Part shown: piece by piece, positions 766 to 9,424 of the stretch
Numbering within the stretch: the first letter of the stretch is position 1
Layout of the letters: each line of letters begins with the position of its first letter
DNA from: an uncultured Coriobacteriia bacterium
Lineage (GTDB): Bacteria > Actinomycetota > Coriobacteriia > Coriobacteriales > QAMH01
DNA: 64,000 nt
NCBI GenBank assembly: GCA_949879855.1
Contig: CATLBX010000001.1
Span: 82 to 64,081, forward strand
Reading direction: 5' to 3'
Program-made: the position numbers and the translations under genes
Notes under the pieces: generated by a model
The model's input: the letters and a program-made list of their open reading frames with translations, nothing else
What the model was told of the DNA's origin: nothing
Database searches by the model: none

Positions 766-2241
766 CTACTTCACAGCGACCGCGTACCAGCCGACGTTCT
801 CGTCGCGCCAGCCGATGGAGACGAGGCTGTTGTGCTCGTCGAGGCTCGTAGTGTAATTGTGCGAACCGGAGTTGTTGGTGGGGGCGCTGGGGTCGACGTT
901 GGGGTTGAACTGGCGGTACAACGGCACCGTCTCGGCGTCGTCGGAATACCACGCGATGCCCTCGGGGTTGTCGCCCTCGATCCTCCATCCGGCCTTCACG
1001 AGCTCATCGCGCTCGAAGGCGCTCATGGTGTAGTGGTGGTCGGTGCCCGAGTACAGGCGGTACACCGGCTTGGAGCTCGCCTTGGGGGCGATCCAGCCCA
1101 CGCCCTCGTCGTTCCAGCCCGACGCGACGACGGAATCGCGCTCGAACTCGCTGGCCGTGTAGAAGTGCTCGCCGGAGTTGGGATTGTAGAGACGGTACAT
1201 GGTCTGGGCCTCGATGCCGGTGTCCTCCATGGCGAAGGCCGACAGGCTCGTGACCGTGAAGCTCACGTAGCCGTCGCGCGCGACGCTCCTGATCTTCTCG
1301 ATGCCGTCGCCACCGCGATGGTGGTGCACGACGATGATGTGGTCGTTGTACTTAGCATCGATGGGCAGCGAGATGGTCAGCTCGCCGAAGCCGTTGCTAA
1401 CAGACTGACCGTTCACTCGCATGCCAACACTGTAGACATCGCCGATGCGACGCTCCCCAATCGCCTGGTCCAGACCGTAGTAATAGGCACTTGAGGAATC
1501 TTCTATCCCTGTCATGACCTCGATTGCGGCGTTTGAAGGCACATTGGGACCCCGCAAGTTGCCCTCCGCACGGATGCCCGTATCACCGCTCACGGTGATG
1601 CCTGGTTGAGTTGGCTCTGTAGGGGTCGAGGGCTCTGAAGGATTGAGCTCTTCGAGGATAACTACCAAATCTTTCTCGGTTTCCGGGCTGGAATAGCCGC
1701 CCAATCCTTCATCGTACCAGTTGTTTTCAAGTAAGTAATCTCGTTCGGAAACAGCTCTCGTGAAGTAATGGAAGCCGGTATCAGGATTGTAAAGACGATA
1801 CACCGGCACACTTTGGGAGTTATCGCGCGCACTGTATCTGAAGCCCCTATCTTCCCATCCTTGCTGCACCAATAAATCGCGCTCCTCGGGTGATGATGAG
1901 AAGTTAAACGCTCCATCCCGAGGATTGTATACATTGTAGAAAAGCTCGGTGCTCGACTCGACCTCGCCCACATATTCCCAACCGAGGCTCACGTACATGT
2001 CGCGCTCTTCTGCGACGGGCGTGTAGTAATACTTGTAGCCATCGAACATGGAGGGCTTGCGCAGGCTGAAGACGGTGTCAGCATCGGGCATCGCGTACTC
2101 GACCTTCTGGTACTTGTGCAGGTCAGGCGCCTCCTCCGCATAACCCTGCGGCGCCACGAGCACCATCGTACACACGAGCACGAGGGAAAGCGCGATGGCC
2201 AATACGCTCCTTATGGATGTGGTGAGAGAGTTTTGCTTCAT
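766..2241 (-). CDS. Secreted surface protein with multiple ~40-aa YRLYNPNxGEHFYT...GW..EG..W repeats (DUF5648-like, putative cell-wall binding)
   Basis: N-terminal signal peptide (MKQNSLTT...APQGYAEE). Repeats are present at both ends of the 491-aa ORF. Confidence 0.8.
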   Translation of the reverse strand: MKQNSLTTSIRSVLAIALSLVLVCTMVLVAPQGYAEEAPDLHKYQKVEYAMPDADTVFSLRKPSMFDGYKYYYTPVAEERDMYVSLGWEYVGEVESSTELFYNVYNPRDGAFNFSSSPEERDLLVQQGWEDRGFRYSARDNSQSVPVYRLYNPDTGFHYFTRAVSERDYLLENNWYDEGLGGYSSPETEKDLVVILEELNPSEPSTPTEPTQPGITVSGDTGIRAEGNLRGPNVPSNAAIEVMTGIEDSSSAYYYGLDQAIGERRIGDVYSVGMRVNGQSVSNGFGELTISLPIDAKYNDHIIVVHHHRGGDGIEKIRSVARDGYVSFTVTSLSAFAMEDTGIEAQTMYRLYNPNSGEHFYTASEFERDSVVASGWNDEGVGWIAPKASSKPVYRLYSGTDHHYTMSAFERDELVKAGWRIEGDNPEGIAWYSDDAETVPLYRQFNPNVDPSAPTNNSGSHNYTTSLDEHNSLVSIGWRDENVGWYAVAVK

Positions 2242-2452: not shown

Positions 2453-2686
2453 TCACCCGATCTTCGGGGCGCGGGCGAGGAAGAAGCGGCAGTTGTGGCA
2501 GTTCTCCTTGCGGGCAACGCTGAAGTCCACGTCGTAGGCGTCGAGCATTTCCATGGCGCCGGCGCGCTCGTACCAGCCGCAATCGCAGATCGTGTTGATG
2601 CAGTCGCGCGGGCAGATGCCCGTGGCGTCGTGCGGGCAGTCCTTCGACATCGCCCCGTGGCAACCCCTATCTTCCCAGCAGCGCAT
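2453..2686 (-). CDS. Small Cys-rich protein (N-terminal RCWEDRGC motif reminiscent of CW-type Cys-rich domains)
   Basis: 77-aa ORF with 11 Cys. It starts 8 nt after the transporter stop and is co-oriented, so it is probably the last gene of the operon. Confidence 0.5.
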   Translation of the reverse strand: MRCWEDRGCHGAMSKDCPHDATGICPRDCINTICDCGWYERAGAMEMLDAYDVDFSVARKENCHNCRFFLARAPKIG

Positions 2687-2694
2687 CTCTCACC

Positions 2695-3897
2695 TCAAAA
2701 GCCGAGCACGGTCATGACCAGACAGCCTATCGTCAGCACGAACACTACCACGATGAGCACCCAGATGAGCACGGTGAGCAGACGGCGGTTGGTATACGCG
2801 CGCATGACGTGGCGGTCGGAGAGGATGAGCACCATGAAGACGAGCAGCACGGGCAGCAGCACACCGCTCACGAACTGCGCGATGAGCATGATGCTGATGA
2901 GGCTCACGTCGGGGATGAGCGTCACCACGACGCCGATGACGATCATGGCGGTATAGATGCCGCGAAACGCGGGGGCGTCGTTCCAGCCCCGGTCCACGCC
3001 GCGCTCCCAGCCGAACGCCTCGCAGATGGCACTCGAGGCCACGAGCGGGACGACGCAGGCGGCCAAGAAGCTCGCCGCGACGAGGCCGACGCCGAAGAGA
3101 ATCGTGGCGTATTGCCCGGCAATGGGGGTGAGCGCCGTTGCGGCGGCGGCCGCGCTATCCACGGCAATTCCCTGCGGATACAGAACGGTGCCCGTCGTGA
3201 TGATGATGAAGCCCGCGACGGCGCACGCGACGATCGCGCCGCCGATGGCATCGATGCGCTCGAGGGGAAGCTCGTCGGGTGTGACGCCCTTGTCCACGAC
3301 GTTGTTCTGCGTGAGGAAGATCATCCAGGGCGCGATGGTGGTGCCCACGGTGGCAATCACAAGGCTGATGAAGCTGGGATTGTTCTCGAAGTGGGGAATC
3401 ACGAGGGACAGGCCCACCTCGCCCCAGTTGGGCTGCGCGAGGAACGCCGCGACGATATAGGTCACGAACACGCAGCTGATGGCGAGGAACACCTTCTCGA
3501 CGCGCTTGTAGCTGCCTCCCATGACCAACAACCACACCACGACACCGGCAACGGGAACCGCGACGTACTTGCTCACGCCGAAAAGCTCCATGCCGGCGGC
3601 GATGCCCGCGAACTCCGAAAGCGTGGCGGCACCGCTCTCGATGAGCACGGCGATCATGGCCAACGCGGTCAGGCGCACGCCAAACTGCTCGCGGATGAGC
3701 GATGCGAGGCCCTTGCCCGTCACCGCGCCCATGCGCGAGGCGCCCTCCTGCACGATGGCGAGCATCACCATCATGATGGGTATAATCCACAGGGTCCCGT
3801 AGCCGAACTTGGCGCCGATGGTCGAATACGTCGAGATACCGCCGGCGTCGTTGCCCGCCATGGCGGCGACCACGCCGGGGCCGAGCGCCGCGAGCAC
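2695..3897 (-). CDS. NRAMP/SLC11-family transporter of the NRMT (NRAMP-related Mg2+ transporter) type
   Basis: About 11 TM segments. The helix-1 motif is NDAGG instead of DPGN. The helix-6 motif is GTTIAPW instead of GA..MPH (Asn->Gly, Ala->Thr, Met->Ala), the substitutions described for Eggerthella lenta EleNRMT. GTG start directly after an in-frame stop. Confidence 0.8.
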   Translation of the reverse strand: MLAALGPGVVAAMAGNDAGGISTYSTIGAKFGYGTLWIIPIMMVMLAIVQEGASRMGAVTGKGLASLIREQFGVRLTALAMIAVLIESGAATLSEFAGIAAGMELFGVSKYVAVPVAGVVVWLLVMGGSYKRVEKVFLAISCVFVTYIVAAFLAQPNWGEVGLSLVIPHFENNPSFISLVIATVGTTIAPWMIFLTQNNVVDKGVTPDELPLERIDAIGGAIVACAVAGFIIITTGTVLYPQGIAVDSAAAAATALTPIAGQYATILFGVGLVAASFLAACVVPLVASSAICEAFGWERGVDRGWNDAPAFRGIYTAMIVIGVVVTLIPDVSLISIMLIAQFVSGVLLPVLLVFMVLILSDRHVMRAYTNRRLLTVLIWVLIVVVFVLTIGCLVMTVLGF

Positions 3898-3987
3898 GAT
3901 GAGGACGCGGTTCCACTAGCGCGGGGCAACCATGCCCTGCTGCGAATCCCTGAGCTCTGTCAGCCTCTCCTACGTCACGGCACCACC

Positions 3988-5325
3988 CTAGCTGTTGAGC
4001 ATGAAGATGAGCACGCCGATGACGATGAGCAGCGCGACGATGATGCCGATGACCCACGGGCTCGAGATGGAACGCTGCTGCAGGTCCTCCTCGTGCTCCT
4101 CCTCCATGACGTCCATGGCGTCGTCGATGGTGACCACGCCCAGGATGACGCCCTGCTCGTCGACGACGGGAAGAGCGAGCAGGTCGTACTTGGCGATCAT
4201 CTGCGCGCATTCCTCCTGGTCAAGATCGGGATGCACGGTGATGAGCTCCTTGGTGCTGATCTCGTCGAGCGGTGTGTCGGGCTTGGCGATGACGAGGGTG
4301 CGCAGGCTGAGCACACCCGTGAGCACGTCGTTGTCGGACACGAGGTAGAGATAGTGAATGCTCTCCTGGTTCTCGTCCATCTGGCGTATGGCCTCGACCG
4401 CGTCCGCCACGGTCAGGTCATCGTTGACCGTGAGGAAGTCGGTGGTCATGATGCCACCGGCCGACTCCTCCTTGTAGCCGAGCAGCGAGCGCACCGAGGC
4501 CGACTCCTCGACGCCCATGAGACGCAGGAGTTTCTCGGCCTTGTCGTAGGGCAGGTCGCCGATGATGTCCGCGGCGTCGTCCGGATCCATCTCGTTGAGG
4601 ACGGCGGCGCCACGGGTTGTGGTCATGTCCTCGATGACATCGGCCTGGAACTCGTCCTCGAGCTCGGCCACCGCGTCTGCCGCCTGGCCGGCATCGAGTT
4701 TGTCGAAGACCGCCTGACGATGCTGCGGCTCAAGCTGCTCGATGATGTCGGCGACGTCGGCCGGATGCATGTCATGCAGGCGCTTGTGGCTCACCGAGAG
4801 CTTGATCTGCGACATATCGCGCTCGATGAGCTCCATGTAGTTCCACGCGATGAGGCGTTCCTTGAGCGGGTGGCCAAAGGCGGTGGCAACGGCGTTTACC
4901 GCCTTCTCGAGATGCGGGGATATGCCGAAGAGCAACCCGCGGACGCCTGTCTCGGCGCCGAGCAGGCGCAGCCCCGCCGGGCTGTCGGAAAGCTTGAGGT
5001 CATTGACGCGCACGACCTTCATGCCCTGCGTGTCGACAATCTGCTTGTCGAGCAGGTCGCGGGCGAGCAGCACCTCGTCCGGTTGCAGGTAGGAGAAACG
5101 AATGTCAGAGGAGGAGACGTTGAGACGTACGCAGGTGCCGTCGTAGCTATCCACATATTTGCGCCAGGAGATCATGAACGGGGTCTTGCGTGGGCCGATG
5201 AAGGCCAACGAGGTGACGCGGGGGAAGACCTCGCCCGTGGCGATGGCCAAATCGCTGATGGCACCGATCTGCTCGCCGTCCTTGTCGAAGACGGGCTGCT
5301 TGAGAATCTGACGCAGGTAGATCAT
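3988..5325 (-). CDS. PRC-barrel + MgtE N-domain + CBS-pair protein with a single C-terminal TM helix (MgtE-like cytosolic sensor module lacking the MgtE pore)
   Basis: N-terminus LKQPVFDKDGEQIGAISDL (PRC barrel). HPADVADIIEQL...DAADIIGDL (MgtE_N). GGIMTTDF... plus a second CBS. Ends WVIGIIVALLIVIGVLIFMLNS. Confidence 0.75.
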   Translation of the reverse strand: MIYLRQILKQPVFDKDGEQIGAISDLAIATGEVFPRVTSLAFIGPRKTPFMISWRKYVDSYDGTCVRLNVSSSDIRFSYLQPDEVLLARDLLDKQIVDTQGMKVVRVNDLKLSDSPAGLRLLGAETGVRGLLFGISPHLEKAVNAVATAFGHPLKERLIAWNYMELIERDMSQIKLSVSHKRLHDMHPADVADIIEQLEPQHRQAVFDKLDAGQAADAVAELEDEFQADVIEDMTTTRGAAVLNEMDPDDAADIIGDLPYDKAEKLLRLMGVEESASVRSLLGYKEESAGGIMTTDFLTVNDDLTVADAVEAIRQMDENQESIHYLYLVSDNDVLTGVLSLRTLVIAKPDTPLDEISTKELITVHPDLDQEECAQMIAKYDLLALPVVDEQGVILGVVTIDDAMDVMEEEHEEDLQQRSISSPWVIGIIVALLIVIGVLIFMLNS

Positions 5326-5513
5326 GCAGGTGGACTCCTCTATTCATACCTGTGCGCCACGCGAAAAGACGATGCGGGTGCGACCCGCGCGATGATGCTA
5401 TGCGTGGCGAAACGACGGCCCCACCGGGCCGCCTAGAGGAGGTCCGGAAAGGCTAACTACTGTGAGGTCGGGGTTTCACAGAGTTCCTTTCTTCTGGACG
5501 ACAAAAAAGCGTC
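5326..5513 (-). promoter_or_regulatory. About 190-nt structured leader/promoter region of the Mg-transport operon
   Basis: Minus-strand hairpins CGGCCC-GGTG-GGGCCG and GCGGGT-CGC-ACCCGC followed by a T-rich tract, nested in CGCCACGC...GCGTGGCG. No riboswitch class was recognised. Confidence 0.3.
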
Positions 5514-5608
5514 TGGCGGAGAGCTGGGGATTCGAACCCCAGATAGGGCTATCTAACCCTATACTCGCTTAGCAGGCGAGCGCCTTCAGCCAACTCGGCC
5601 AGCTCTCC
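5514..5608 (-). tRNA. tRNA-Ser (anticodon GCU), type II with long variable arm, encoded CCA
   Basis: Manual cloverleaf: acceptor GGAGAGC/GCTCTCC, anticodon loop CT-GCT-AA, T-arm TGGGG-TTCGAAT-CCCCA. Confidence 0.9.
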
Positions 5609-5674: not shown

Positions 5675-6067
5675 CTAGTCGAGCGGATTGCCCGGATGAG
5701 CGGCCGCTTGCATGCGGACCCACGCGACGCGCTTGGCCTCCGAATCGTCAAGGCACGTGGCAAAGCCGGGCACTGCGACAAGCGTGTAGCCCGTGACGCG
5801 CGCGGGCACGTCCGGGGAGAAAGCCTGCGCGTCAAGGGCGAAAGCCGTGCGCAGGGCATCAATGGAGGCATCGTCAATGGCGATGACCGCCCAGGGGTCG
5901 GTCTCGAAGACGAAGTGCCTGGGCTCGTCCACGTCGGCAAGCTGCACGATGGCGCAACCATCCGCGTAGCCAAGCGCCCGGGCGGCGGACTGCAAGGCAG
6001 AGGCCACCCGCACGTCGACGGGCAAGCTCGCGAGCACGACGAGCGTGGTGTCCTGAGCCTGCGTCAT
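5675..6067 (-). CDS. Hypothetical protein (130 aa)
   Basis: ORF with host-like codon usage. No recognisable motif. Confidence 0.45.
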   Translation of the reverse strand: MTQAQDTTLVVLASLPVDVRVASALQSAARALGYADGCAIVQLADVDEPRHFVFETDPWAVIAIDDASIDALRTAFALDAQAFSPDVPARVTGYTLVAVPGFATCLDDSEAKRVAWVRMQAAAHPGNPLD

Positions 6068-6075
6068 GGGAAGGA

Positions 6076-6327
6076 CTAGACGGCGGTGACGGTCACGCCC
6101 GTATCGGCGTCGTCACGCTCGATGGCGTCTTGCGCCTCGGTGAGCATCTCGCGCACGTTGTCGAGCTCCATCTGGATCTTCTGGAGCTGCATGGCAGTGC
6201 GCTCCATCTGGCCGTCGGACGCGAGGTGGTACATGCGGTGCGTCCAGCGCCTCGTGAGGGCGACCGTCTCGTCAATCTGGTTGACCGTATCCTTGAGTTG
6301 CTGGGTGTTCACGCCGTTTGCGCACAT
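6076..6327 (-). CDS. Hypothetical small helical protein (83 aa)
   Basis: ORF 9 nt upstream of the 5675-6067 gene on the same strand. Confidence 0.4.
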   Translation of the reverse strand: MCANGVNTQQLKDTVNQIDETVALTRRWTHRMYHLASDGQMERTAMQLQKIQMELDNVREMLTEAQDAIERDDADTGVTVTAV

Positions 6328-6785: not shown

Positions 6786-6862
6786 GGGGCATTACCTCAG
6801 CTGGATAGAGGGACTGACTACGAATCAGTACGTCAGGGGTTCGAATCCCTTATGCCCCACCA
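6786..6862 (+). tRNA. tRNA-Arg (anticodon ACG), encoded CCA
   Basis: Acceptor GGGGCAT/ATGCCCC, anticodon loop CT-ACG-AA, T-arm AGGGG-TTCGAAT-CCCTT. Confidence 0.9.
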
Positions 6863-7055: not shown

Positions 7056-7934
7056 TTAGTCAGCGGCTTGCCATGCGATTCCCTCATTGGTCCATCCTGC
7101 GTCTACGAGCGCGGACCACTCGGACTCGTCAGCCGTGAAGTGATGCGCCCCCGTGTTCGGGTTGTAGACGCGGTAGACGGGTTTGCCATAACGCATGTCG
7201 GCGAATGTGACGGTCTCGGCAGTCCATCCTGCCTTGACGAGGTTGCTGGCCTCGTCGTAGTTCACCGTGTAATGGTGCTGGCCAGCGTTTGGATTGTAGA
7301 GACGGTACACGACACTGCCTCTGTCTGCCCCCATGAATGCCACGCCCTCCCGACTGTAGTTCTCAGGAAGCGCCTCGTATTCTGCCTCCGATGCAGTCAA
7401 GAAATGGTCGTCGGTGTCTGCGCGGTAGGCGCGGTAAACCGGGTAGGTTCCGGTGGGAATGTCTATGCGTATCAAGTCGCCCTCCTTCTCGGTGTTGGGA
7501 TATAGGCCAACAACTTCCTCGAACGGGAAGTTATCGCCCGGACAGTTGGTATCGAGCACGTCCTTATGCCTCAGAACGGTCTCGATGCCGTACTTGGCCT
7601 TGAGCATCGTTATGAGGTCTCGTCCAGCCAAGATTTGCGTCTGCGGCATCTTTTCGCGCATGTAGTCGCCCTCGAAGCAGATTCCGATGCTGTCGTAGTT
7701 ACTGCCCTCGGCGTGCGCTCCGATTGCCCATTCGGGTCGCATCGAGTAGACGGTGCCGTCCTTGCGCACGAGGAAGTGGTAACCCGCTCCGGCCCATCCC
7801 CTGCCCTCGACGTGCCAGCGCTGGATGTCCTCGGGCGACGCGGTAGATGCCTCGGCGTGGTGGACGATGATCCGATTCGTCGCGCTCCTGCGAGACAGCG
7901 AGCCAAACGGCAAGTTCGCGTCAATCACTCGCAT
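7056..7934 (-). CDS. Endolysin: N-acetylmuramoyl-L-alanine amidase (Amidase_2/PGRP type) + C-terminal YRxYNPNxGxHxxT wall-binding repeats
   Basis: N-terminus IIVHHAE...GAGYHFLV...GAHA...NCPG. The C-terminal half has three repeats of the same family as the host surface proteins. Confidence 0.85.
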   Translation of the reverse strand: MRVIDANLPFGSLSRRSATNRIIVHHAEASTASPEDIQRWHVEGRGWAGAGYHFLVRKDGTVYSMRPEWAIGAHAEGSNYDSIGICFEGDYMREKMPQTQILAGRDLITMLKAKYGIETVLRHKDVLDTNCPGDNFPFEEVVGLYPNTEKEGDLIRIDIPTGTYPVYRAYRADTDDHFLTASEAEYEALPENYSREGVAFMGADRGSVVYRLYNPNAGQHHYTVNYDEASNLVKAGWTAETVTFADMRYGKPVYRVYNPNTGAHHFTADESEWSALVDAGWTNEGIAWQAAD

Positions 7935-8362
7935 GGTAGATCACCAACCTCAGTGCCCTTGGCAATCGCTTCGGAGCTCATCGCGTCATCGCGCTTGGCA
8001 AGCGTCCTGATGACCGGAAGCTTCGCGATGTCAGGATTGAGCACGCAGAGGTTCTCGACGATGCTGACGATCTCCGTGAGGACGATGAACGCGCACACGG
8101 CGGTGACCGCCGGAATCTCGGGCGCCGTCATGCCGATGCCGAGCTCTGCCACCTCGAAGTTGATGTAGACGGTCGCGACCTCGTAGGCGGCGGCCAGGGC
8201 TATGAGACCGAAGTACCCCGCCTTGTGCCACAGGCCCTCGCGCAACTTGACGCTGTTGATGTCCCTGTCCTTTGCCGCCGCGGCGACTCCACTGATGATG
8301 TCGAGCACCATCATCACCGTGGCAATCGCTATGGGATGCCACGGTATCTCGAATCCGAACAT
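7925..8362 (-). CDS. Holin (phage holin, multi-TM)
   Basis: 145 aa with 3-4 TM segments and a charged C-terminus. Overlaps the endolysin start by 10 nt. Confidence 0.75.
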   Translation of the reverse strand: MFGFEIPWHPIAIATVMMVLDIISGVAAAAKDRDINSVKLREGLWHKAGYFGLIALAAAYEVATVYINFEVAELGIGMTAPEIPAVTAVCAFIVLTEIVSIVENLCVLNPDIAKLPVIRTLAKRDDAMSSEAIAKGTEVGDLPCE

Positions 8363-8446
8363 GTCTTCTTCCTTTCCTTCGTGGTTTGCTATGCAAAACC
8401 GCCCAGACAGCCAGGCGGAAATTGCCTATGCGAATGGAGATGCGAA

Positions 8447-9424
8447 ATGGACGCAATGAAACTCACGGTTGAACAAATAACGACCGACCACTACTTGCCC
8501 GAGAAGCGCAAGCGCAGGCGCACCAACACCGTCGATGGCTACGAGAGCAGCATCGGGCTCTACGTCATCCCGCAATGGGGCGATATGGCGATCTCTCAGA
8601 TAGGCAGGGACGACGTACAGGACTGGGTCGAGCGTCTTGCCGGCACAAAGGCCGGCCCAGGAGGTGCCTGGAAAGCCTACAAGTGCCTGCGCCAAATCAT
8701 CCGCTGGGCCATGAGCAAGTGGGGCCTGTTCGTGGCCGACCCGACATTGGGCATCGAGAAACCGCGAAAGCCCGCCTACAAGCCAGAAGTGCTCACGCCC
8801 CGGCGCCTGAAGAGGCTCATCCGCGGATTCGTCGGATGCGAGCAGGAGCCGACGCTGATCATCGAGGCCGACCTGGGAACGCGTCCGGGGGAGTGCTACG
8901 TCATGCGCTGGGAGTGGATCAACTGGCGCACGGGCCACGTGCCGATCGCCTCGACGCTGCAGCAGGCGTCAGACGGCGTGCGCGAATGGCCGACGAAGAC
9001 GGCAAAGGGCGAGCGCGACGGCTATCTTTCTCCGTGGGCGCTCGACCGCCTGCACCAGATCTGGGTGCAGCGAGGACGGCCGCGCGGGAGAATCATCGGG
9101 GACCTCAAGCCATCGCAGATCGCATACCGCATCCAGCGGTGGATAAAGGTTCATAGGTTACCGAAGATAACGATGAAGAACTTACGGCATACCTGGGGAA
9201 CCATCGCCGCGCAGTCTGGTGTGCCCATCGAGACGGTGTCGGCGATGATGGGGCACTCGGACATCCAGACGACGTACCGTTACTACTACGCGCTCACTGC
9301 CGCAACCGCGCGAAAGGCAAAGCGGCGCATGGCAAGAAGCATCCTCGGCAAGACGTGCTCCGAGATGTACAAGGGTATCGTGTTGCCGCTCGCACCAGCG
9401 GAGTCAGTGTCAAAAGCCGCGTAG
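8447..9424 (+). CDS. Tyrosine recombinase (325 aa), proposed shufflon-specific (Rci-like role)
   Basis: Catalytic signature GTRPGE (R), LRHTW (HxxR), MGHS, TTYRYY (Y). GGAG RBS 8 nt before ATG 8447. Its stop codon is 3 nt from the inverted site copy at 9428. Convergent with the tail-fibre gene. Confidence 0.85.
   Translation: MDAMKLTVEQITTDHYLPEKRKRRRTNTVDGYESSIGLYVIPQWGDMAISQIGRDDVQDWVERLAGTKAGPGGAWKAYKCLRQIIRWAMSKWGLFVADPTLGIEKPRKPAYKPEVLTPRRLKRLIRGFVGCEQEPTLIIEADLGTRPGECYVMRWEWINWRTGHVPIASTLQQASDGVREWPTKTAKGERDGYLSPWALDRLHQIWVQRGRPRGRIIGDLKPSQIAYRIQRWIKVHRLPKITMKNLRHTWGTIAAQSGVPIETVSAMMGHSDIQTTYRYYYALTAATARKAKRRMARSILGKTCSEMYKGIVLPLAPAESVSKAA

Follow-up and report, generated by a model that had tools for sequence, protein, structure and literature searches.

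A 64,000-nucleotide stretch of the genome of an uncultured Coriobacteriia bacterium (GenBank assembly GCA_949879855.1, contig CATLBX010000001.1; the whole stretch is hereafter the window) holds three co-directional minus-strand genes in the order partner, transporter, Cys-rich gene (Table 1). The transporter is assigned to the NRAMP-related Mg2+ transporters (NRMTs), and the partner encoded ahead of it is identified, by its domains and aligned residues, as the cytosolic Mg2+-sensing module of MgtE minus the pore. The pairing of such a sensor with such a transporter is real and was already published in 2014 (Shin et al. 2014, PLoS Genet 10:e1004429); the locus described here adds a further example of it. 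Its newest feature is a conserved leader composed of an upstream open reading frame (uORF) and a hairpin. That the locus represents the NrmT operon in a Coriobacteriia form and that its sensor gates its carrier are, taken jointly, propositions that we regard as evenly balanced.

NRMTs constitute the fourth class of bacterial Mg2+ importers and are uncoupled carriers lacking a regulatory domain of their own. EleNRMT from Eggerthella lenta is a proton-uncoupled Mg2+ transporter that also carries Mn2+, and its defining or essential features are Asp55, Gly58, Glu133 on helix 3, Thr224, Gln379 on helix 10, and the loss of the helix-6b histidines; in transmembrane helix 6 (TM6), Thr224 replaces an alanine and an alanine replaces a methionine, and Mg2+ transport depends on Thr224 (Ramanadane et al. 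2022, eLife 11:e74589). The window transporter matches the Pfam Nramp family PF01566 with E=5.6e-86 over profile positions 1-356 of 357. Its closest sequence match in the PDB is EleNRMT itself (7qia, E=1.3e-160), with 65% identity over 399 aa. The initial annotation had pointed to DAGG in place of DPGN and to a GTTIAP motif as substitutions that set Mg2+ transporters apart, and both are borne out by the open reading frame (ORF): NDAGG occupies residues 16-20, giving D-A-G-G and not D-P-G-N in TM1, and GTTIAPWMIFLTQ at 185-197 carries GTTIAPW, with Trp191 and Thr196 at the two helix-6b histidine positions. In the alignment to 7qia, the EleNRMT residues D55, G58, E133, T224 and Q379 correspond to D17, G20, E95, T186 and Q341 of the window protein. 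The binding-site signature is thus identical and helix 6b likewise lacks its histidines; the two genes differ in that the first 27 codons of the window gene are interrupted by stops, a point that is taken up below. With both the NRAMP (LeuT-type) fold and the TM1, TM6, Gln and Glu signature present, the transporter is placed by sequence in the NRMT clade of the SLC11/NRAMP family, and proton-uncoupled uptake of Mg2+ (and Mn2+) is its predicted activity, the transport data being those of EleNRMT.

The partner matches the Pfam families PRC at residues 1-58 (7.6e-11) and MgtE_N at 186-287 (2.9e-28), together with two CBS domains (1.4e-21). Its layout comprises a PRC barrel, a second beta-rich region, the MgtE N-domain, a CBS pair, an acidic plug helix (DDAMDVMEEEHEED) and one C-terminal TM helix. 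The MgtE membrane domain PF01769 was not found in the partner by Pfam, and the score of 211.6 bits against the NCBIfam mgtE equivalog TIGR00400 lies below the cut-off of 232.75. Since it has a single TM helix, no PF01769 match and a score below the TIGR00400 cut-off, the partner is not an MgtE transporter. Residues 180-417 nevertheless align without large gaps to native residues 22-262 of Thermus thermophilus MgtE (2yvx, E=4e-43). The AlphaFold2 model has a mean predicted local distance difference test (pLDDT) score of 70, which reaches 76-91 in the MgtE_N and CBS part and is low in residues 1-180; at its C-terminus a long helix at 400-420, the plug helix, is followed by a hydrophobic helix at 423-444. 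The best Foldseek matches of this model in the PDB are the MgtE entries 2zy9, 5x9h, 2oux and 2yvx (E ~1e-21). The earlier description of this protein as a PRC barrel, an MgtE N-domain, a CBS pair and one TM helix without a pore therefore agrees with the Pfam domains, the terminal helix of the model and the lack of a PF01769 match.

In MgtE, the residues that mediate closure are E258 (Mg2 site), D259 (Mg3), D91 and D247 (Mg4), D226 and D250 (Mg5), D95 (Mg6) and E59 (Mg7), and mutating the cytosolic ligand residues abolishes Mg2+-dependent closure. The window partner has Asp or Glu at every one of these cytosolic sites, Mg2 to Mg7, in the alignment, among them D249 and D402 (Mg4), D253 (Mg6) and E413 and D414 (Mg2 and Mg3). 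It shares with the Thermus protein (2YVX, 2ZY9, 5X9H) the N-domain, the CBS pair, the plug helix and these acidic ligands. It differs from it in lacking the five-helix pore domain with the Mg1 site Asp432, in carrying an extra PRC-barrel N-terminus of 180 residues, and in a TM helix without detectable similarity to TM1 of MgtE.

Partner homologues fall into three architectures. Proteins of about 600-640 aa with about five TM helices are found in Collinsella, Atopobium and Olsenella (loci L018-L060, L066-L077 and L081-L083); proteins of 445-453 aa with one TM helix in the window clade, Slackia, Ellagibacter and Eggerthellaceae; and proteins of 413-419 aa without any TM helix in Acidobacteriota, Chloroflexota and others. 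The N-terminal 180 residues, that is, the PRC barrel and the second beta-rich region, are common to all three classes and absent from MgtE. The Mg2-Mg7 ligand positions are near-invariant across 59 long and 11 one-TM homologues. Shin et al. (2014) describe the partner only as a homologue of the N-terminal cytoplasmic part of MgtE; to this the window protein adds the PRC-barrel N-terminus and the C-terminal anchor, and its relatives add either about five degenerate TM helices or none. The long forms look like MgtE with a degenerate membrane domain, because the alignment of their profile to MgtE extends over TM1-TM3, although other residues stand in place of the TM2 motif GGNTGNQ, and because one member, P0036, with 27.1 bits, falls just short of the PF01769 cut-off of 27.6; of this domain the window form has kept an anchor only. 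The family may record a stepwise loss of the MgtE pore, from five degenerate TM helices to one and then to a soluble protein, with the sensor re-used for an unrelated carrier.

The association of the two genes is conserved well beyond the window. A search of 1.84 billion cluster representatives returned 619 NRAMP relatives at E<=1e-30, of which the full-length ones mostly carry NDAGG and GTT[IV][ATS]P[WY]. Scanning one genome per species with an NRMT alignment gave 80 loci, the majority from Collinsella and the others including Slackia, Ellagibacter, Atopobium, Olsenella, Enorma, Eggerthellaceae, Pyrinomonadaceae, Anaerolineaceae, Limnocylindrales and Nitrospirota. Three of these begin at a contig edge and were excluded. 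In every one of the 77 loci with upstream sequence, ORF calling and phmmer placed a co-directional partner homologue immediately ahead of the transporter gene; these loci come from Coriobacteriia, Acidobacteriota, Chloroflexota and Nitrospirota. The reverse look-up was equally uniform: all seven partner proteins traced by exact sequence adjoin an Nramp gene (in L098, an Nramp fragment). The initial annotation had noted the partner immediately upstream and had named a lack of co-occurrence across genomes as what would speak against its split sensor-transporter design; the neighborhood survey found the opposite. Shin et al. (2014) had themselves reported that a gene with homology to MgtE's cytoplasmic domain neighbors NrmT and is conserved, and proposed that it exerts cytoplasmic feedback regulation. 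The EleNRMT structure paper (Ramanadane et al. 2022) does not discuss the neighboring partner gene, and later SLC11 phylogeny papers that treat NRMT do not mention MgtE. Three apparent Rosetta-stone fusions of CBS and Nramp domains (P0222, P0211 and P0214) seem to be frameshifted fragments; they were not used and lend no support.

MgtE and CorA channels limit Mg2+ influx through Mg2+-sensing cytosolic domains (Shin et al. 2014). EleNRMT has no cytosolic regulatory domain. Regulation of the NRMT in trans by the partner, as suggested in the initial annotation, is a reasonable inference that is supported by co-occurrence and residue conservation. In the reading that we consider most likely, with an even chance of being right, the partner is a membrane-tethered, MgtE-like dimeric clamp that would close on Mg2+ and restrain the neighboring carrier. 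By analogy with MgtE, a dimer co-transcribed ahead of the carrier would be anchored beside it through its single C-terminal helix; high cytosolic Mg2+, possibly together with ATP, would close the N-domain/CBS clamp; and the plug helix and TM helix, perhaps with the PRC-barrel N-terminus, would then hold the adjacent NRMT inactive. The partner would in this way supply a feedback gate that the carrier itself lacks. The question of what the partner does, which dates from 2014, is sharpened by these analyses, as every Mg2+-sensing residue of MgtE is kept, the adjacency is invariable in the four phyla sampled, and the partner occurs in three membrane architectures. Together, the residue conservation and the architectures offer precise mutants and natural variants for tests.

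Several observations weigh against a gating role. EleNRMT transports in liposomes alone (Ramanadane et al. 2022), the Clostridium NrmT rescues Mg2+ uptake without a partner, and co-expression of the Acidobacterium capsulatum partner left the rescue by its transporter unchanged; that transporter, moreover, acted mainly as an Mn2+ importer (Shin et al. 2014). The six soluble homologues, all from other phyla, are missing the plug-helix sites E258 and D259 and have Asn at D226, so a plug-helix mechanism cannot be universal. The transporter copy in the window is itself interrupted. Transporter activity without a partner could be accommodated if the partner chaperoned or buffered metal, or served the carrier in its assembly or stability, a second option already raised by Shin et al. 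(2014): transport would then proceed without it, the single co-expression test would show no effect as it did, and the family-specific PRC-barrel N-terminus, which has no counterpart in MgtE gating, would have a place. However, a buffer would need no membrane anchor, and selection has kept exactly the residues of MgtE that serve Mg2+ closure, including the plug-helix sites in the membrane-attached forms, which makes this alternative rather unlikely.

It is distinctly unlikely that the pair handles Mn2+ or another divalent metal in place of Mg2+ and that the partner senses that metal. The Mn2+ transport by EleNRMT points that way, as does the A. capsulatum homologue, which rescued Mn2+ uptake and Mg2+ uptake only weakly (Shin et al. 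2014), and no M-box Mg2+ riboswitch was detected at the gathering threshold in the window locus or in nine of the ten relatives scanned. Against this, the window transporter has the complete Mg2+ signature of EleNRMT including Thr224, the ligands of the partner are hard-oxygen Asp/Glu sites as in MgtE, and an M-box does stand ahead of a closely related pair in L086, which counts for a role in Mg2+ handling. Strongly disfavored is the idea that the partner has no function and is what was left of an MgtE gene once its pore was lost. The degenerate MgtE-like membrane domain of the long forms in Collinsella, Atopobium and Olsenella, with its near-cut-off score and lost motif, would be compatible with such a history; the partner gene, however, is intact and adjacent to the transporter, is conserved in all 77 loci over four phyla, and keeps its Mg2+-site residues.

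Whether the window copy itself is functional is a separate matter. Four assemblies, namely the NCBI metagenome-assembled genome (MAG) GCA_948811325.1 and three Logan runs, encode an identical partner protein. Frames were compared by aligning the window to L008, L009, L005 and L006: the sibling transporter has 427 codons where it is complete (L008 and L009), and in all four its frame starts with GTG 9 nt past the partner stop. In the window, this frame runs into TAG at 3972-3970 (codon 3) and again at 3918-3916 (codon 21), so that its 5' end translates as VT*ERLTELRDSQQGMVAPR*WNRVLIV (asterisks mark stops); these two codons account for the 90 nt that separate the partner gene from the transporter ORF. 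The window and GCA_948811325.1, aligned over 6,846 bases, differ at seven positions; six of these, clustered in 58 nt, are A>T changes when read in the direction of the gene. All six are non-synonymous (K3*, H9L, E11D, K16M, K21* and R22W), giving two stops and four missense changes. At 3972, 3932, 3918 and 3915, which include both stop-creating sites, T occurs in none of ten remoter relatives that are 72-82% identical over the stretch. The 400-aa ORF that can still be read begins at the first residues of TM1a, without an obvious Shine-Dalgarno (SD) sequence. Neither a 400-aa nor a 388-aa transporter product matched any public gene call, and a pattern admitting either allele had no match in JGI metagenome contigs. 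As assembled, then, the window does not encode a full-length transporter, whatever the cause of the A>T changes, and its system is either inactivated, made as an N-terminally truncated protein, or mis-assembled.

Just short of even is the chance we assign to a transporter that is a pseudogene in a decaying locus, or to six A>T changes that are an assembly or consensus error over an intact gene. The concentration of two TAG codons and four missense changes in 58 nt, where the other 6.8 kb differ at one base, speaks for it, as do the lack of matching gene calls and the occurrence of broken genes in the related loci L098 and L064. However, the other 400 codons are intact and 98% identical to a sister strain, and six transversions of the same type in one short patch do not resemble decay of the ordinary kind. 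In the Slackia MAG locus L064 (4500-5848) the partner is split into ORFs of 121 and 322 aa, and in L098 (3001-6165) a truncated partner is followed only by a 192-aa Nramp fragment; these broken copies may be assembly errors or decay. Adenine mutagenesis of the kind caused by a diversity-generating retroelement was rejected: the window has no template-like repeat, and the mutated stretch is the 5' end of a membrane-protein gene, unlike the target of such an element.

Upstream of the partner, the 190-nt stretch down from tRNA-Ser(GCU) folds better than is usual (z = -4.15). The window clade, Collinsella, Atopobium, Olsenella and some Eggerthellaceae share a 20-nt core, GAAACCYCGACCUCACAGU, upstream of the partner. 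This core is best read as part of a tiny ORF, with a GAAAGG SD sequence 6-9 nt ahead of its start in the loci inspected (6 nt in the window). Length differences amount to whole codons, the stop is always in frame, the Pro codon varies at the third base only (CCU, CCA, CCC) and His is written CAC or CAU. The peptide predicted in the window (Table 1) has counterparts in MKPRPHSR* of Atopobium and Olsenella, MKSKPRPYSR* of Collinsella and MKVRKPKPHS[LM]* of Eggerthellaceae, with MKPHSP* and MRDHDHPHST* in others and a related MKVRKHNNR* in Slackia. A stem P1 with the core as its loop was considered and discarded: MAFFT gave no register, RNAalifold did not recover P1, and a coding uORF accounts better for the core. 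When metagenome contigs were searched with the bare 20-mer, 120 loci were found, 108 of them with at least 500 nt downstream, and 107 of the 108 have the partner gene there in the same orientation, with its start at a distance of 78-156 nt from the core.

The second part of the leader is a hairpin, P2, whose 5' arm has the final base of the uORF stop codon as its first nucleotide. Covariance model R1, built from six sequences, was searched against 36 sources (458 kb, both strands). It scored the window element at 93.5 bits (E=1.2e-20) and gave one forward-strand match in each of 19 sources, at or just before the partner start; the only other match was a weak antisense self-match in the window, and there was none in L015, a related contig that lacks the partner and the transporter. 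In an alignment that was fitted to the structure of the model, 91% of P2 cells are paired, as against 38-53% with slid partners, compensatory changes are seen in 11 of 13 pairs, and none of 500 shuffles attains the observed values. Rfam 15 detected no M-box or other family in the leader at the gathering threshold or at E<=10, and a full-text literature search for the leader peptide returned nothing relevant. Closer to the partner lies a terminator-like hairpin (Table 1), which is kept in L005 with an altered loop. If a ribosome at the stop of the uORF is modelled as unmasking the SD sequence of the partner, the predicted accessibility of that sequence in the window goes from 0.25 to 0.55; over 14 leaders it goes up in nine and is flat or down in five.

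Expression of the operon is probably also controlled by this leader in a ribosome-dependent manner. We hold with half confidence that the 80-nt element is an undescribed leader of the form MK(P/S)(R/K)P(H/Y)S-x-stop with a hairpin at the stop, on which ribosome pausing or termination at Pro-His-Ser-x-stop would remodel the hairpin and thereby set expression of the sensor-transporter pair, and that it is an independently arisen analogue of MgtL, stacked behind an M-box in some genomes. In Salmonella, translation of the Pro codons of MgtL in the mgtA leader controls a Mg2+ transporter gene. The likeness lies in a very short, Pro-containing putative uORF with its own SD sequence in the 5' leader of a Mg2+-transporter operon, beside alternative hairpins. 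In contrast, there is no sequence similarity, and the conserved part is the C-terminal Pro-His/Tyr-Ser-x-stop; a hairpin beginning at the uORF stop suggests control at termination.

The NrmT operons of Shin et al. (2014) have the same gene pair in the same order and were given the same proposed feedback role, but many of them have an M-box (ykoK) riboswitch (RF00380), which regulates NrmT operons of other lineages and is absent from the window at E<=10. In L086, an M-box (3568-3806, 113.7 bits) and the uORF/hairpin element (3936-4004) stand in tandem upstream of the partner-NRMT operon. As the element there has the M-box on one side and the partner gene on the other, it is separate from the M-box. 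If confirmed, the leader peptide and hairpin would represent a new cis-regulatory element of Actinomycetota that are abundant in the human gut (for example, Collinsella, Atopobium, Olsenella and Eggerthellaceae). The tRNA-Ser(GCU) directly upstream of the leader reads AGY codons, and AGU is an invariant Ser codon of the leader peptide (present twice in the window); this tRNA is not adjacent in all genera, and the link to the AGU codon may be coincidence.

The third gene, which the initial annotation took to complete the operon, holds that place only in part. It is co-directional and, given a gap of just 8 nt, probably co-transcribed with the pair in the window. The conserved system does not include it: its homologues make up only 23 protein clusters, each with an identity of at least 61%, and the gene is absent from all 80 genome loci except those of the close relatives of the window. 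In L015 (5001-5249) it occupies the same synteny, formed by an 83-aa gene, a 138-aa gene, the Cys-rich gene and pyruvate:ferredoxin oxidoreductase genes, without the partner or the transporter, and in L012 (4620-4865) and L014 a TOBE gene on the opposite strand stands between it and the transporter. It is a lineage-specific neighbor outside the conserved system. The product had no meaningful family match in Pfam or NCBIfam, and its AlphaFold2 model was unusable (pLDDT 56), so no fold search was made. The family has eight invariant Cys and one invariant His (His19) in the pattern CWE..GC...CPH..G.CPR.C..T..C ... C..C, and the product is likely to be a small metal- or Fe-S-binding protein.

Table 1. 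Features of the partner-transporter locus in the window.
Feature	Position	Strand	Description
Partner gene	3988..5325	(-)	445 aa; Pfam, TtMgtE 2yvx alignment, AlphaFold2/Foldseek, ligand positions
NRMT-clade NRAMP gene, 427-codon frame of sibling assemblies	2695..3978	(-)	GTG at 3978, 9 nt past partner stop
Longest intact transporter ORF in the window	2695..3897	(-)	400 aa; GTG start at 3897
Six A>T changes	3915..3972 (3972, 3953, 3946, 3932, 3918, 3915)	(-)	Mismatches against near-identical assemblies
Cys-rich gene	2453..2686	(-)	77 aa; start 8 nt past transporter stop
Perfect 14-bp inverted repeat, 5-nt loop	2412..2444	(-)	AATGAGACAAATAC / GTATTTGTCTCATT; directly 3' of Cys-rich gene, read from the sequence
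Terminator-like hairpin	5364..5388	(-)	GCGGGTCGCACCCGC plus ATCGTCTTTT; in 5' leader, about 40 nt before partner start
Leader RNA element	5416..5495	(-)	SD, uORF and hairpin P2; covariance model R1
Putative uORF	5453..5479	(-)	GTG AAA CCC CGA CCT CAC AGT AGT TAG (MKPRPHSS*); homologous uORFs across Coriobacteriia
tRNA-Ser(GCU)	5514..5608	(-)	Own T-run; upstream boundary of operon

The inverted repeat directly downstream of the Cys-rich gene is the likely end of the operon; it was not called by the terminator scan because it lacks a T-run. On the other side of the tRNA-Ser boundary, two small minus-strand genes at 5675-6067 and 6076-6327 (130 aa and 83 aa) have no family matches, and their syntenic place upstream of the tRNA is shared by all close relatives, among them L015, where the transporter operon is missing.

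Elsewhere in the window, about 41.9 kb (~6867-48815) are absent from the related contig L005, in which the flanks adjoin. This segment starts at tRNA-Arg(ACG) (6786-6862) and carries, as read from the translations, genes for an N-acetylmuramoyl-L-alanine amidase-like protein (7056-7934), a holin-like protein (7925-8362) and an integrase-like protein (8225-9424). It looks like a prophage integrated at the tRNA. Many paralogous secreted proteins with DUF5648 repeats are encoded at 766-2241 (-) and from ~48.8 to 64 kb, with DNA repeats of about 400 nt that are 65-82% identical.

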